Part shown: positions 12,117-27,604 of the stretch, piece after piece
Layout of the letters: every line of letters starts with the position of its first letter
Numbering within the stretch: the stretch's first letter is position 1
Source: Escherichia phage vB_EcoM_G2248
Length of the DNA: 64,000 nt
Sequence record: MK327932.1
Strand: one strand, 5' to 3'
Notes under the pieces: model-generated
The model's database searches: none
Told to the model about the DNA's origin: nothing
The model's input: the letters and a program-made list of their open reading frames with translations, nothing else
Made by a program: the position numbers and the translations under genes

Positions 12117-12594
12117 CTAAATCATTGCAGTATTTTAGTGCCTTAGTTTGAAATTCTGCGCTGTTAAGTTCTTCATAACGGTCATAATCACCGTTTAATG
12201 CTGCCTTTCTTGCTTCTTGCTCTATCTGCATGTCAGACATGATAATACAGCGATCCCGTGCTTTCAGCTTCTCAAGTTGTATAGACTCTTCTTTCTGTTT
12301 GCGCAATTCTTCTTGACGCTTCTTTTCTTCTCGTGCTTTCTCTTCCCGCGCTTCTTTGATTGCATCCTTGAACATCTGCGTTTGTGGTGCTAAACCAACT
12401 TTAACGCGATCCACGTCTCGACGTTCCATTTTAGAAATAAAGCATGATTCGATCTGATCATCACTTGCATATGCTGCTTTACATTCACGAAGCAAGAAAA
12501 CCGGATCTGATTTAGCATTCATCATAGCTTCCATGTTGGCACAACCAGTAAGCATGAATGCAGCCGCAAGACCAATCAGTTTAATCATTTTCAT
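12109..12594 (-). CDS. predicted lipoprotein with coiled-coil region
   Basis: N-terminal signal peptide with lipobox LTGC; E/K-rich helical middle. Confidence 0.6.
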   Translation of the reverse strand: MKMIKLIGLAAAFMLTGCANMEAMMNAKSDPVFLLRECKAAYASDDQIESCFISKMERRDVDRVKVGLAPQTQMFKDAIKEAREEKAREEKKRQEELRKQKEESIQLEKLKARDRCIIMSDMQIEQEARKAALNGDYDRYEELNSAEFQTKALKYCNDLAK

Positions 12595-13415
12595 TTAGTC
12601 ACCTCACCGAAAATTGTAAATTGTCTACGATTCTCATCGCCGAAAGATTCTACTACGTCGTTTACCTTGACGCAAGTCCCGCGCGGTAAAATTACTTCAC
12701 ATTCGCAAGGATTCCATGCAATTGACCCAACAACAAAACCTTTATGATCTTTTACGTCAATTACCCATGATACATTACAAGAATGTTGCATCTTTCCGGT
12801 CATTGATTCATATCGATTCTCACAATAAAGGCTAGTGCTGTTTGATAGCCATCCTCCAAAGATGATCGGTGTCATGCTGGTCGATACAAAGTTTTTAAAG
12901 GTAAACTCCTTATCTTCAATGATGCGCTCTATTGTCTGAATGTCAAGATGTTGACCGCGATAAAGAGTACCGTTTAACTTTTCGGTTTTATCCATGACAC
13001 AATCCATCAAATCAACAATCTCTGATATCTCATCGGTCATGTCTTCTTCCCCTAAGAGAGCACCATTTACCCATTCGTATTGTTCAGATACATAATCACA
13101 GATTGCATTATATTCTGCTGGGGTTATGTTGTTATGTTTGTAATGTTTGAATACATTATCTCCAAAGTCTTCGGAGTGTACTTCATACATCACATTAATG
13201 ATTTTCTTGACAAATCCATAATCTTGTGTCTCGCGCTCAAGGAAGCGGATAACCTTCACATAATCATCAAAGTTAATCTGATCGCTGATCATCTCAGTGA
13301 TCATGTAACCATTAATACCCTCAATGTCATATGTTTCGATGTAATTATCCATACGTTCCATCATTGATTCGCGTGATTCTTCTGAAAGACGAAAATCCTG
13401 TAATTTCTTGAACAT
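12591..13415 (-). CDS. Alt-like ADP-ribosyltransferase paralogue (short form)
   Basis: Shares the C-terminal catalytic signature of the adjacent Alt: YRG..., FKNFVSTS..., ECEVILPRG versus Alt YRG, FKNYVSTS, ECEILLPRG. Confidence 0.75.
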   Translation of the reverse strand: MFKKLQDFRLSEESRESMMERMDNYIETYDIEGINGYMITEMISDQINFDDYVKVIRFLERETQDYGFVKKIINVMYEVHSEDFGDNVFKHYKHNNITPAEYNAICDYVSEQYEWVNGALLGEEDMTDEISEIVDLMDCVMDKTEKLNGTLYRGQHLDIQTIERIIEDKEFTFKNFVSTSMTPIIFGGWLSNSTSLYCENRYESMTGKMQHSCNVSWVIDVKDHKGFVVGSIAWNPCECEVILPRGTCVKVNDVVESFGDENRRQFTIFGEVTK

Positions 13416-13493: not shown

Positions 13494-15545
13494 TTACATT
13501 TTAAATTTATCTGGCATTGCGTCTACAGATACCAGATCAGCGATAAGCTGACGTAGAGTTGCCTTATCTGCTTTCTTACGTTCGGTTTTAGCTTCGCTAA
13601 TGAAGCTGGAGAAAGACAGGTCAGAAGCAGGTTTAACAACACCTTCACGGATGAATGCATCACCGTCCGCGATCATCTCGCCAGATTCTTGTAATGCTGC
13701 CAGTTCATTTTTGTTCATAATATGTGCCTCAATGTAATAAGTTTCTTGTGAATCCGTCGATGCCGTAGCACGAGTTACCGTATCAAAGGATAACACAACA
13801 CCGCGAGGAAGTAAAATCTCGCATTCTTTGTAAGCAAATGCTTTGTTACCTACTGGCAAGACAGGGATGTTTTCCGCGCCAGCAATGGAGAAAGCAACAT
13901 TAGCGCCACCTTCACCGCGAGAGCCAGCCATAGAATCAACACCAGCAACGGCACTAGCCACGTTTGCATTCCAGCCGCCAAAAATGTTAGGTGCAAGGGA
14001 AGTGCTCACATAGTTTTTAAAGTAAAACGCTTTTTGCTTACGTGCAGTTTCCCACATTTGCGACCGGAAGTCCATACCACGATACAGAATAGTACCCGGA
14101 TCAAGTTTAACGCCATAGTTGGAGAAGGCATTATCCAGTGCATCGCACATCTTGACCAATTCTTCTGGATCTGAGATGCCTTCAAACTCTTCCAGCTTAC
14201 GATCAGTTAGGAAGTTGTTCATATTGATGTATGCTGCATCGGCATATTCGCTCAACACAAAACCTTCCGCGCCTGGCAGATCAAGATCAATATCTGCCAT
14301 CATTTCACCCATGTTACTAGCAATTGCTTCAAACATACCGGAAGCAACATTACGCAGGGCATCGGTTTTAATCTGGGTGATATGACTACGCAGCATTTCA
14401 GCTTTTACATCTGCTGGCATAGACTGGTCTACTCGATCCATTGCCAGGGCGGTGATCTTGTTTTCGAATACTTCCTCGCTCATGATTTCTTTTAAGCGTT
14501 TGATTGATGCTGCGATAACTTCCGCAGACAACGGATCATATTGATCCTGAACTTTTACCAGTTCGCTTACTGCGTATTTTGCATCGGCTTCGCTTTCAAA
14601 AATAGTACGCATGAAACCATAGCGAGTGATAATATCACTTGTCCAGTCATTCAGAGAACGGGCGGTTGAACGTTCTAAGGCTTGACGATCAATCAGAGTA
14701 TTAAACTGTTTCTTAGGTTCGGCTTCGGTGATATCTTCTTCCGGTTTAAGATTAATTTTTTCTGGATGATTCACATAGTCGCTGTTATAGGTCGCTTGAG
14801 TTTTCAGCATTTCTTCTTTAGTCAAACGAGATTTAGCCGCTACGCGTTGTTCCGCTTCCGCGTTTCGTTCTTCTTCTGACACCAGACTAGCCGCATACGC
14901 CTCATCTTTAGTCAGAGATTCACCAGTAGCCTTAGATACCCAGCGATCACCTAAATCACTTTCTACTTTAGTGAACAAGGAATCATCAAGTTTAATCCCT
15001 TTAATCTTATCAATCGCCATACCGCGACGCTTGACAACAACTAAAGCGATCTTTTTGCTGGTCATTACTTCCTGCTGGAATACTTCAAACTTCGGTGTAC
15101 GACGCACCAAACGCTCTATAACGCGCTTAACCAGTTCGGTCTTACCTTTCATGCGGGATACGTTAAAACGGAACATAACAGCGTCTAATTGCGCTTTACG
15201 GGCTGTTTCCATAACCACATCAAAAGCACTTGCCATAACTGCAATCGGGTTATCGCCTAGACCATTTTTAAGCTGTACAATACGACCGCTTTTGTTCATT
15301 TCGCACAGTACAACATGTGCGGTCTTGTCACCCATACGAATGATTTTAGGTGTTTTGTTGGTGAAGTTACAAAGACGGACAATCACATCTTTATCGCGTG
15401 TCTGTACTGCAAAAAGCTGTTTAGGATTCTGCTTAGGCTTTAAGCACTGTACCGGAGCAATACTGCCAAAGTTTTCTTCCTCTTCCGTCAACAGCCATTT
15501 CTCGAAAGATTCAATCATTAGATCGTCGATTTCTAAGTTAAACAT
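13494..15545 (-). CDS. alt: Alt ADP-ribosyltransferase (packaged, modifies host RNA polymerase in T4)
   Basis: 683 aa (T4 Alt ~682); R-S-ExE catalytic motifs; position after gene 54 as in T4. Confidence 0.85.
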   Translation of the reverse strand: MFNLEIDDLMIESFEKWLLTEEEENFGSIAPVQCLKPKQNPKQLFAVQTRDKDVIVRLCNFTNKTPKIIRMGDKTAHVVLCEMNKSGRIVQLKNGLGDNPIAVMASAFDVVMETARKAQLDAVMFRFNVSRMKGKTELVKRVIERLVRRTPKFEVFQQEVMTSKKIALVVVKRRGMAIDKIKGIKLDDSLFTKVESDLGDRWVSKATGESLTKDEAYAASLVSEEERNAEAEQRVAAKSRLTKEEMLKTQATYNSDYVNHPEKINLKPEEDITEAEPKKQFNTLIDRQALERSTARSLNDWTSDIITRYGFMRTIFESEADAKYAVSELVKVQDQYDPLSAEVIAASIKRLKEIMSEEVFENKITALAMDRVDQSMPADVKAEMLRSHITQIKTDALRNVASGMFEAIASNMGEMMADIDLDLPGAEGFVLSEYADAAYINMNNFLTDRKLEEFEGISDPEELVKMCDALDNAFSNYGVKLDPGTILYRGMDFRSQMWETARKQKAFYFKNYVSTSLAPNIFGGWNANVASAVAGVDSMAGSRGEGGANVAFSIAGAENIPVLPVGNKAFAYKECEILLPRGVVLSFDTVTRATASTDSQETYYIEAHIMNKNELAALQESGEMIADGDAFIREGVVKPASDLSFSSFISEAKTERKKADKATLRQLIADLVSVDAMPDKFKM

Positions 15546-23739: not shown

Positions 23740-24213
23740 TTACTCCTTATTTTCGCGCTCGTACTTTTCGAAATAAAATTCTACTGGCTGGTCATGAATT
23801 GACAGCAAGCCAAAGCGTTTAGCCGCTCGCAATCCCATATTGCGCTGAATGTACTTCTGGAAGTTCTCGCGTATACACTTACGCCAGTATTCTAAGCCCA
23901 TACAGCTTTTATAAAGATTGCATTGCACACACGCCGGATTCATGTTATCAAGTATATCATGTTCCGGTTTATGCATTCCTACAACCTTATACTTCCACGA
24001 TCCATCATCATTACGGGCAATTCGTCCATTTTCATCATAGACTACCTTTGAGCGTCGCAATACTGGTTTGATGTGGTCTGCGTGCCAGCGATCCCCTAGT
24101 TCCTCGCCACAATAGGCACAACGTCCACCATATTTCATTTTCAGGATCTGGCGTTGCTCTTTCTTTGACAATTTTTTAGGTTTAGGGGCTTTCGCCCCTT
24201 CATTATCACACAT
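23740..24213 (-). CDS. HNH endonuclease-like protein
   Basis: CAYCGEEL...HADHIKP...N...CVQCN arrangement (CxxC, HxxH, second CxxC). Confidence 0.6.
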   Translation of the reverse strand: MCDNEGAKAPKPKKLSKKEQRQILKMKYGGRCAYCGEELGDRWHADHIKPVLRRSKVVYDENGRIARNDDGSWKYKVVGMHKPEHDILDNMNPACVQCNLYKSCMGLEYWRKCIRENFQKYIQRNMGLRAAKRFGLLSIHDQPVEFYFEKYERENKE

Positions 24214-25708
24214 CGAATACCTCTTTTACTGTATTTGCAGTGGTCTTGTCGTAGCGAATACGTTTGATGATCGGGAGAAATAAAGAGAACTCAGGTTCAT
24301 CTTCTTTACGTGATTTGCTGCGAATGTACCCGTTGCATGTCATCTCAATGACTTTTCCAATCAGGTTATGACGGTCAGCCCATAACATTTCTCGGTCGAG
24401 TTCATTTCGACGATCGAACGGAATTACACGTTCAATACCATCATCACCTTTTTCGGTTGTGGTGTCGGTTAATCCCGATCCGGTGTTAGTCATCATTCGT
24501 CCGCACGCACTACGGACAGTAAAACCGCCTACCTTATTAGGATCTTTACTATGCGGATATACATCAACAATTTCAGCGTCGAAGTCAATCACTTCTTTAA
24601 ATTTAACCTGGTCTTTACTGCGACGATCTTCAAATACACCATGTAAATTTTTAAGGATAATACCTTCTAAGCCCATGTTTACATAGCGATGATATACTTC
24701 GCGAGCTTCATCTATATTGTTAACTACAGTGTTTTCGATTATCTGAACACGAGGATCGTTAAGTTCTTCAACAATCTGTTTTAGTTCTTCGAATCGATCT
24801 TTATATTGCTTCGTTGCTTTCTCGTTTCCGTAATACACATCACGGTCGATAACATCCCAGACAGTATAAACAATACATTGGGCTTCTTCTTTTGGAATAG
24901 TTCCTTTAAGTGATTTGTTGAGGATACCATTTCCGGTCTGACGATCTGCAACAACGGATTCTTTTACTGCTTCCGCTACTGGCGTTAATGGCATTTCCTC
25001 TTCTTCAAATATCCATGACAGAGTACCATCATAAACGCTCTCAACGAAGTTCTGCGCTGGTGTTTGCGAAAGGGTAGGCATATATACCAATTCGCCATCT
25101 AGAACAATTCCACGGCCTCGTAGACGCTCTAAAACCGCAAACAAATCATCAAGTCCTTGATAGGTATTACCTGAGCGGGTATAGATTGCTAATGTTTCCC
25201 CGTCAATATCAGCCATACCACGAGCGCCATCGCTTTTAAGTTGTGCATACGCCGGATACTTGATATTAGCAATAGTCTTATCAGAACATGACGATGCAAG
25301 GTGACACGGTTGCTGGGGGATCAGTTTCTTCCATACCTTGTTTGCAGTGGTAGCGGAACAACCACATTCCAGATCACGATTCAGGACCATCATTGCAACT
25401 TTAGCATCATCTTCTGACAAGCAAGTCAGAGTATCGGTAACTAGCTGTAATGCTGCGTTACCAGTTACTTGACGCGTGGCAAGTTTATTTTTAAAGACCT
25501 GTAATGCACCGGATAAAGACAATACAGACGAATAACGCGATGGTTTATCGTATTTCTTTACGCCAAACGTAACCTGTTTGCAATATGCCAGATAAAAGCA
25601 TTCTTTCAGTGTTTCATTGCTTGCAGATTCTTTCAGGATCTTTTCTTTCAGCGATGTTTTGTCTGTTGCTGCAAGCTGGTTAATGATATTAAGAATTGAC
25701 ATTTTCAC
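24206..25708 (-). CDS. 30: ATP-dependent DNA ligase
   Basis: 500 aa; colinear with T4 gp30 as recalled (KADGAR adenylation motif, IDGELV, EGIILKN, C-terminal DKTxANT). Confidence 0.9.
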   Translation of the reverse strand: MKMSILNIINQLAATDKTSLKEKILKESASNETLKECFYLAYCKQVTFGVKKYDKPSRYSSVLSLSGALQVFKNKLATRQVTGNAALQLVTDTLTCLSEDDAKVAMMVLNRDLECGCSATTANKVWKKLIPQQPCHLASSCSDKTIANIKYPAYAQLKSDGARGMADIDGETLAIYTRSGNTYQGLDDLFAVLERLRGRGIVLDGELVYMPTLSQTPAQNFVESVYDGTLSWIFEEEEMPLTPVAEAVKESVVADRQTGNGILNKSLKGTIPKEEAQCIVYTVWDVIDRDVYYGNEKATKQYKDRFEELKQIVEELNDPRVQIIENTVVNNIDEAREVYHRYVNMGLEGIILKNLHGVFEDRRSKDQVKFKEVIDFDAEIVDVYPHSKDPNKVGGFTVRSACGRMMTNTGSGLTDTTTEKGDDGIERVIPFDRRNELDREMLWADRHNLIGKVIEMTCNGYIRSKSRKEDEPEFSLFLPIIKRIRYDKTTANTVKEVFDV

Positions 25709-26168
25709 CTCGTTTTGTTAAACGTTCACGAATATCATTGAGGATACTACAAAATTCCGATTCAGTCAATATAGTCTTTAACGGATCAGTTCCACCTATG
25801 CTATGACGTAATTTCTTATTTCCTGTAGCGAGTAATGCTTTACAAAATTCTGGGTTATCCCGTGCCATCGTAACAAATGCCAGATGTACCAGTCTGTAAT
25901 AATGCTCACTCATTCGATGAATAGGGCGACCCTGAAAATATAACATGTGATTCTCAATCTTTTCAGTTCTTCCGGTTCTTTTTGCTTTGCCACCGTGCAT
26001 CAAAAAGATTTCTCTTTGTCTCTGAGGGTTCTTAAATCTTAGCCCCTGTAAAAATCCTTCTGTGCTGTTAATATCGCAACCAAATAGACGGAATGGTCTT
26101 TTATTGAAATTGCTCAATTCACCCGATGGATAAGGTCCACCCGCATAGATATCAATTTCAGAAGTCAT
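25689..26168 (-). CDS. NADAR/YbiA-like (DUF1768) protein
   Basis: N-terminal GELSNF motif and ~160-aa length typical of the YbiA/NADAR family. Confidence 0.6.
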   Translation of the reverse strand: MTSEIDIYAGGPYPSGELSNFNKRPFRLFGCDINSTEGFLQGLRFKNPQRQREIFLMHGGKAKRTGRTEKIENHMLYFQGRPIHRMSEHYYRLVHLAFVTMARDNPEFCKALLATGNKKLRHSIGGTDPLKTILTESEFCSILNDIRERLTKRGENVNS

Positions 26169-26404
26169 TGAAACTAATCTCGCTAATCAGAGAGAACGGA
26201 TCATAATCGTCATTAGGAATATCGATAGTAATCGAATGAGGATTTACCCATACACCAAACTGGTCTTCTTCGGTGAATACTTCGGTATGGATTTCGTGGA
26301 TGTTTACATTCATAGTTTTCATAATAAAATTCCTTAATAATCAATAACTTACAAAATCATATAGCCAAAATATAGGCGGGATTATTACCCGCCGTTTAAA
26401 ATCA

Positions 26405-26728
26405 TTAACCGTAAACTACCACAATATTCTGTTTGTGTGTTACAGTCCATTTCAGGTCGATCTCTTCTTCCTTCTTAACGCCGTTAATAACGTCTGGATG
26501 AGGAACTTTATTCATCTTTCCATGTGGCAGTAGAACAGTTTTACCCAGCAATTCTTGATCTACCGTTTCACCAATATCAATAATCTTACCTACCAGCGGA
26601 ATCTCGCCCATAGTGCGCTTTTGCTCAATAATGATCCCCATAGAGCTTTTTACTTCGGTCCCTGCGCTTTCTGCTTTAGCTTCGATAATTACATAATCAC
26701 CAAGTGCTTTAGGAGTTTTAACGGTCAT
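26405..26728 (-). CDS. 31: GroES-like head-assembly cochaperonin
   Basis: 107 aa; GDYVIIEA and VPHPD segments as in T4 gp31; synteny. Confidence 0.8.
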   Translation of the reverse strand: MTVKTPKALGDYVIIEAKAESAGTEVKSSMGIIIEQKRTMGEIPLVGKIIDIGETVDQELLGKTVLLPHGKMNKVPHPDVINGVKKEEEIDLKWTVTHKQNIVVVYG

Positions 26729-26769
26729 AATTTTATTACCTCTTCAAATCAATACAGTTTAATGATGAA

Positions 26770-27090
26770 TTATTTATAAATTTCGACGATCTGCGCTGGA
26801 GTCAGCCCGTCTACATTAATCAGACTATCAAGCCCAAAACTACGGAAACCTTCAACTGCAATTTCATATACTGGCAAAGATGTTTCTGATTCTTTACGCG
26901 GTTTTTCAACATTCGGAACTAACCACTTTTCGTATGTTTCGAAAGGCATCAGTGCCGGATCTCGCGTAGCGATCATATCTCGGACAGTACCATCTTTCTT
27001 AGTAAACTGCAAAGAGTGAGTACCGACCGAAAACATTTTCTTTAGTGCTTCACGAAGTGCGATATTATCAACTTGTTCAGTCATTATCAA
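26770..27090 (-). CDS. hypothetical protein
   Basis: 106-aa ORF between cd and 31. Confidence 0.45.
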   Translation of the reverse strand: MIMTEQVDNIALREALKKMFSVGTHSLQFTKKDGTVRDMIATRDPALMPFETYEKWLVPNVEKPRKESETSLPVYEIAVEGFRSFGLDSLINVDGLTPAQIVEIYK

Positions 27091-27583
27091 TACCCTTCAA
27101 ATCAGTCAATAATGCTTTTGGAATACGCGTGATCGTAATATCGGCATTATTCAGAATATCAGCCCAATCACGCCCACCATTTCGATCATATGTGTCGCAA
27201 TAGTATAGATGTTTAATTCCACTGTTTGCAATTGCTTTAGCGCAATCTGGACACGGTGAAGCAGTACACCACATACTAGCGCCTTCAATCGATACACCGC
27301 TACGGGCAGCAAACAAAATAGCATTTAATTCAGCGTGGATCTCGTTTTTCTGTGACCATGCACTATGCTCTGGTCGTTTTTCTGGGATCATTTTGCCGTC
27401 ATCATCCAGCCAACCGCTTTTATGTGCATGACAGCTACAATTTACTTGCCCTGCTGGAGTTCCGTTAAATCCAGTAGAAATGATTCGCCCGTCTTTTTCG
27501 ATCAGTGCGCCTACCTTCCACGAAACACATTTAGAGTTCTTTGCGATCAGATAGGCGATCTGCATGTAAGTTTGTGACAACAT
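27077..27583 (-). CDS. cd: dCMP deaminase
   Basis: Zinc-binding deaminase motifs HAELNA and PCxxCA. Confidence 0.85.
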   Translation of the reverse strand: MLSQTYMQIAYLIAKNSKCVSWKVGALIEKDGRIISTGFNGTPAGQVNCSCHAHKSGWLDDDGKMIPEKRPEHSAWSQKNEIHAELNAILFAARSGVSIEGASMWCTASPCPDCAKAIANSGIKHLYYCDTYDRNGGRDWADILNNADITITRIPKALLTDLKGIDND

Positions 27584-27604
27584 AATATAATCCTCACATA
27601 TTAA

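Follow-up and report, generated by a model that had tools for sequence, protein, structure and literature searches.

A Krischvirus ortholog of the T4 adfN gene upstream of DNA ligase and its probable role in countering DarTG1

Introduction

What is the function of the small gene that runs into the start of the DNA ligase gene in Escherichia phage vB_EcoM_G2248? We analyzed a stretch of 64,000 nucleotides of this genome (MK327932.1; the whole stretch is referred to as the window), in which an open reading frame (ORF) on the minus strand at 25689-26168 extends from ATG to TAA and encodes 159 amino acids. An initial annotation, made from the nucleotide sequence, had placed a NADAR/YbiA-like gene at exactly these positions, with the strand unstated. 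It had suggested a role either in protecting phage DNA from DarT-type defence or in controlling the phage's own ADP-ribosylation, and had mentioned the action of family members on riboflavin-pathway intermediates. By sequence comparison, the gene is the Krischvirus ortholog of T4 gene 30.3 (adfN). Its product is very probably AdfN, a DNA guanine-N2 ADP-ribosyl glycohydrolase erasing DarT1 adducts, as judged by analogy with T4. The features seen in the window itself are the orthology, the NADAR fold, the catalytic Glu together with the subfamily-specific His, the C-terminal helix, and the position upstream of ligase.

Johannesman et al. (Nat Commun 2025; PMC11825919) gave the T4 gene its present name, adfN. 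T4 and T2 need AdfN for plaque formation on DarTG1 hosts and become sensitive to DarTG1 when adfN is deleted, and ectopic AdfN(T4) suffices to rescue RB69, whose own allele is 15 residues shorter (PMC11825919). The protein has a predicted NADAR fold and strips ADP-ribose from DarT1-modified DNA in vitro; DarTG1 ADP-ribosylates guanine, and the thymidine-directed DarTG2 system is not countered by AdfN(T4) (PMC11825919). Similarly, ADP-ribosylated guanine (G-ADPr) but not ADP-ribosylated thymidine (T-ADPr) is hydrolyzed by T4 gp30.3 in vitro (PMC11125620, PMC12945103). Bioinformatic studies placed the gp30.3 family in NADAR, biochemistry and genetics followed in 2023-2025, and the function is already known. 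The protective role proposed in the initial annotation corresponds in essence to the published T4 findings, and it is supported here by the orthology with adfN (PMC11825919, PMC11125620).

Orthology with T4 gene 30.3

The window represents Krischvirus, an RB49/JSE-like T4-type coliphage. Across 59 phage records, which all come from RB49/JSE-like Krischvirus coliphages, the 1-kb stretch around 30.3 matches at 98-99.6% identity, and the encoded protein is separated from gp30.3 of both RB49 and JSE by a single residue, D104N (99.4% identity to RB49 gp30.3). The RB49 record AJ550428 annotates the same three genes as 31.-1, 30.3, and 30, with ribosome-binding sites, and gene 30.3 is also named in the JSE annotation.

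By BLASTP, the protein and T4 gp30.3 (from NC_000866) share 38% identity (151 residues, E 3e-30); the alignment pairs residues 3-150 of the query with T4 residues 2-152 and reaches the T4 C-terminus. The match to the Pfam family PF08010 (Phage_30_3) scores 131.9 bits, where the cutoff is 36 (E 1.9e-38), and covers profile positions 2-138 of 138, and the corresponding PHROGs family is phrog_652 (E 4.2e-45). Homologs of 30.3 were detected by tblastn in 1509 phage records, mostly of T4-type phages infecting enterobacteria, Acinetobacter, Aeromonas, and Vibrio, and an exhaustive HMMER scan matched 973 cluster representatives at E<=1e-3. A chance ORF is excluded by the PF08010 score and by the size of these two sets.

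NADAR fold and the gp30.3 subfamily

Residue conservation was read in three alignments with T4 (A1-A3) and in up to 168 rows of the gp30.3 family. The GELSNF signature, which had been noted near the start of the protein, occupies residues 16-21 and is aligned with GDFSNF of E. coli YbiA; L18, S19, N20, and F21 are each kept in 121-160 of the 168 rows. The NADAR/YbiA-like assignment had been named beforehand as the point on which the initial annotation could fail, and it was borne out by both profile comparison and fold. In particular, hhalign comparison of the 63-sequence gp30.3 alignment (A3) with a 37-sequence YbiA alignment (A4) yielded a probability of 97.7% (E 1.9e-12, 143 columns) and paired E37, Q41, and R44 of the window protein with E48, Q52, and K55 of YbiA. 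A search of PDB with a 13-sequence family profile returned YbiA as the sole match, a weak one (E 0.012). The top match of the single-sequence PDB search, DltA (7vhv, E 4e-4), was spurious and disappeared once the family profile was used.

The AlphaFold2 model built on the family alignment has a predicted local distance difference test (pLDDT) score of 93.9 and a predicted template modelling (pTM) score of 0.88, and shows a helical core flanked by small beta-sheets, as in the NADAR fold. Foldseek comparison with viral models (BFVD) ranked gp30.3-like phage proteins first, followed by many annotated NADAR proteins, and some relatives match both PF08010 and the Pfam NADAR model PF08719. As far as profile-profile comparison and the predicted fold can tell, membership of the window protein in the NADAR superfamily holds.

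The subfamily can be specified from the last strand. The phage NADAR (gp30.3) family is defined by His in place of Glu in YbiA-type and Asp in DarG1-type proteins (PMC11125620, PMC11543638). In the window protein this phage-type His is H122 (codon CAT, 25803..25805, minus strand), which stands directly after the predicted strand 119-121, is invariant in A1-A3, and is conserved in 161 of the 168 rows. Judged by its sequence, the protein is a member of the phage gp30.3 subfamily and not of the YbiA subfamily. A riboflavin-pathway role is therefore unlikely, and we consider extremely unlikely the whole alternative of an N-glycosidase of YbiA type with small-molecule substrates, whether these be riboflavin-pathway intermediates or soluble immune signals derived from ADP-ribose. 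The Glu that defines YbiA is replaced by His, and T4 gp30.3 acts on DNA adducts both in vitro and in vivo (PMC11825919, PMC11125620).

Active site and the Arg44 allele

The catalytic Glu is E37 (codon GAA, 26058..26060, minus strand), which corresponds to E36 of T4 AdfN, E43 of PnNADAR, and E88 of the NADAR protein of E. coli C7; it is invariant in A1-A3, and Glu is found in 162 of the 168 family rows. The conserved state is also present at the LSNF motif, Q41, A62, R85, G125, T132, L134, T135, and E138. The C-terminal helix (residues 136-157), loss of which cripples the RB69 allele, is intact and predicted with high confidence.

By analogy with T4, this single-domain NADAR-fold N-glycosidase would hydrolyze the bond between ADP-ribose and guanine N2 in phage DNA, and the hydrolysis would clear replicating phage DNA of the replication-blocking adducts laid by the host DarT1 toxin. 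Adduct-free DNA would then permit replication of the phage in DarTG1-bearing E. coli, the protein serving as an orphan antitoxin-like counter-defence. The T4 literature is the source of both the catalytic activity and the anti-DarTG1 phenotype, and we infer that the Arg44 allele would do the same as T4 AdfN in a non-T-even background.

Several observations weigh against the AdfN assignment, and the first of them concerns the active site itself. The one departure from its conserved state is R44 (codon AGA, 26037..26039, minus strand), which is located seven residues after the catalytic Glu, in an ungapped alignment with T4, at the position of the phosphate-coordinating Lys (K43 in T4, K50 in PnNADAR, K95 in E. 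coli C7); the basic side chain is kept. T4 AdfN is weakened by K43A as well as by E36A (PMC11825919), and the K95R variant of the DarG1-type NADAR of E. coli C7 retains G-ADPr hydrolysis in vitro but loses rescue from DarT1 in vivo (PMC11543638). The Pfam NADAR model PF08719 matches residues 14-120 only below threshold (15 bits versus the 35.1 cutoff, E 0.03). Moreover, T4 AdfN is fully effective only during T-even infection (PMC11825919), which implies a helper phage factor; Krischvirus lies outside Tevenvirinae, and genes 30.1, 30.2, and 30.4 were not found within the 64-kb window. Finally, we found no report in the literature of Krischvirus or RB49 being tested on DarTG1.

Arginine at this position is a recurring minority state in the gp30.3 family (R in 11 of the 168 rows, or about 7%; K in 151). 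The Arg-bearing rows stem from several different sequence contexts, with Glu kept in nine of the 11 and His in all 11. It is unlikely, in our estimate, that the Arg44 allele encodes a functionally shifted AdfN with altered substrate range or efficiency. The grounds for such a shift are the in vivo loss seen with K95R, the lost T-even neighbours, and the direct coupling to ligase; the allele could, for example, be tuned to Krischvirus DNA or to another guanine-directed ADP-ribosyltransferase (ART) toxin, or be independent of a T-even helper.

A related alternative retains the NADAR chemistry and assigns it another natural target, namely guanine ADP-ribose on RNA or the adducts of other guanine-directed ART toxins (pierisin/ScARP-like, YarT-like), in which case Arg44 would be an adaptation either to this target or to the DNA of Krischvirus. 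We consider this quite unlikely. Representatives of all NADAR families, including that of T4, remove G-ADPr from RNA and DNA (PMC12945103, introduction), and NADAR proteins that are alike in vitro differ in the toxin they neutralize in vivo (PMC11125620); the retention of His, and mostly of Glu, along with the recurrent Arg also speaks for a different target. However, anti-DarTG1 activity is the sole in vivo phenotype known for the gp30.3 subfamily (PMC11825919), no sequence feature points to a specific alternative substrate, and Arg is a conservative replacement.

Genomic context of the 30.3 gene

The gene order around 30.3 is syntenic with T4 (pseT, cd, 31.1, 31, then 30.3, 30, alt) but compacted. 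In the T4 interval from cd to alt, the genes with a tblastn match in the window are 30, 30.3, 31.1, and cd alone, and gene 31 was detected by profile; no homolog of 30.1, 30.2, 30.4-30.9, rIII, 31.2, or alt.1 was found by tblastn in the window. The presence of 30.3 among just four tblastn-detectable genes argues for its upkeep by selection. An anti-DarTG1 NADAR would thus have been retained in RB49-like phages although the region lost most T4 accessory genes, consistent with DNA ADP-ribosylation as a widespread pressure on T4-type phages. This is relevant to the choice of therapeutic coliphages such as the JSE-like ones. The cd-to-ligase region as a whole (24206-27600) is strongly compacted relative to T4.

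The downstream neighbour is gene 30, encoding ATP-dependent DNA ligase (24206..25702, minus strand; PF01068, E 2.8e-22; phrog_114, E 1.4e-141; 41% identity to T4 gp30). The 3' end of 30.3 reads ...AAA CGA GGT GAA AAT GTC AAT TCT TAA with the ligase ATG embedded, so that the overlap of the two genes, which had been noted before, amounts to 14 nucleotides (25689..25702, minus strand) by direct reading of the sequence; the gene boundaries in the annotations of RB49 (AJ550428) and JSE agree with this. With the GTG two codons upstream as the ligase start, as in the ORF listing, the overlap grows to 20 nucleotides. A GAGG Shine-Dalgarno sequence lies inside 30.3, and the ligase ATG at 25702 comes 7 nucleotides after it. 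The 14-nucleotide overlap and the internal GAGG suggest translational coupling of 30.3 to ligase.

On the upstream side, gene 31.-1 (26158..26322, minus strand; 54 amino acids; phrog_15277, E 3.7e-42), which is annotated in RB49 and has no assigned function, overlaps the start of 30.3 with its stop by 11 nucleotides, suggesting that these two genes are translationally coupled as well. No similarity was found between 31.-1 and T4 30.4, the occupant of the equivalent position. Given the end-to-start overlaps among the three genes, 30.3 is probably co-produced with 31.-1 and ligase. As T4 AdfN needs a phage factor, small coupled neighbours like 31.-1 are cheap candidates for the helper; comparison of the Arg44 allele with T4 AdfN could help to locate this factor and to clarify what the phosphate-binding residue does.

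A terminator-like hairpin, found by a pattern scan as a consensus match only, is located just after gene 31 (26375..26393, minus strand) and separates this gene from the 31.-1/30.3/30 group. It consists of a perfect 6-bp GC stem (GGCGGG/CCCGCC) and a T-run, and the record of phage G37-3 has an annotated terminator at the matching place. The promoter scan detected 10 sigma-70-like sites, compared with 9.6 in shuffled sequence, and in view of this lack of excess no promoter is claimed.

The two ART genes mentioned in the initial annotation are both present in the window. They encode an ART of 274 amino acids (12591-13415, minus strand; PF03496, E 4e-16) and an Alt homolog of 683 amino acids (13494-15545, minus strand; PF03496, E 2e-9), and are adjacent to each other, though not to 30.3, which is about 10 kb away. 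This pair raises the possibility that the NADAR protein acts on the phage's own ADP-ribosylation, reversing or tuning what Alt and the second ART carry out. Such a role is very unlikely. The distance from 30.3 speaks against it, as does the fact that the T4 Alt and Mod enzymes modify arginine in proteins. All demonstrated NADAR activities are directed at N-glycosidic bonds of nucleobases or riboflavin intermediates (PMC11125620, PMC11543638, PMC12945103), and the T4 AdfN phenotype is defence-specific (PMC11825919). The proposal draws on the two PF03496 genes and on the report by Iyer et al. that NADAR genes of T4-like phages are expressed early along with ARTs (PMC9503650). Control of the phage's own ADP-ribosylation found no support here. 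All three alternatives, namely another guanine target, the phage's own transferases, and small molecules, are much less likely than the AdfN function.

Two further ORFs were observed in the window. A 161-residue ORF without a Pfam match follows the ART pair, with a 4-nucleotide overlap with the ART gene. An HNH endonuclease ORF (157 amino acids, PF01844; 23740-24213, minus strand), annotated in JSE, comes directly after ligase and overlaps its stop by 8 nucleotides; it looks like a homing-endonuclease-type insertion, and T4 lacks a counterpart there.

Unusual architectures were seen outside the window, in metagenomic relatives of the protein (P0019, P0020, P0023, P0041, P0058, P0059, and P0077). 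NADAR domains of the gp30.3 (His) type also occur as tandem copies, or are fused to a calcineurin-like phosphoesterase (P0059) or to BspA-type leucine-rich repeats (P0058). In several relatives of 460-500 amino acids the gp30.3-type domain is C-terminal, and the other ~320 residues have no Pfam match.

Comparison with known NADAR systems

The closest well-studied counterpart is T4 AdfN, with which the window protein shares full-length homology, size, the core-only NADAR architecture, the catalytic Glu, the subfamily His, and the C-terminal helix; in both phages the gene is located between genes 31 and 30 and shares the strand of its neighbours. The two differ in the active site (R44 versus T4 K43) and in gene context. 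With 30.1 and 30.2 missing from the window, 30.3 lies immediately next to ligase there; on its upstream side it has 31.-1 in place of 30.4, and the internal ORF 30.3' of T4 has no counterpart. The phage carrying it is a Krischvirus, outside Tevenvirinae.

In contrast to the DarG1 proteins of E. coli C7 and Geobacter lovleyi (8BAT), the window protein has no DarT1 gene beside it, its neighbours being 31.-1 and ligase, and PADLOC gave no hit. It also lacks the N-terminal extension (159 residues versus 219 in the 8bat chain) and has His at the position of the catalytic Asp. It would thus be an orphan antitoxin-like counter-defence and not part of a toxin-antitoxin pair. The difference from E. coli YbiA (2B3W) is seen in the last strand, where the window protein has H122 and no Glu (KKLRHSIGG versus VEHTEND), and in the mere 15 bits given to it by the Pfam NADAR model. 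YbiA has a reported role in riboflavin intermediates and swarming, and does not rescue from DarT1 toxicity in vivo (PMC11125620).

Finally, AdfN(Bas32) and AdfN(Bas60) likewise represent phage-encoded orphan NADARs that counter DarTG1 (PMC11825919). However, they fall into different NADAR clades, reflect independent acquisitions, and need no phage-specific helper (PMC11825919), whereas the window protein groups with the T4-type gp30.3 clade.
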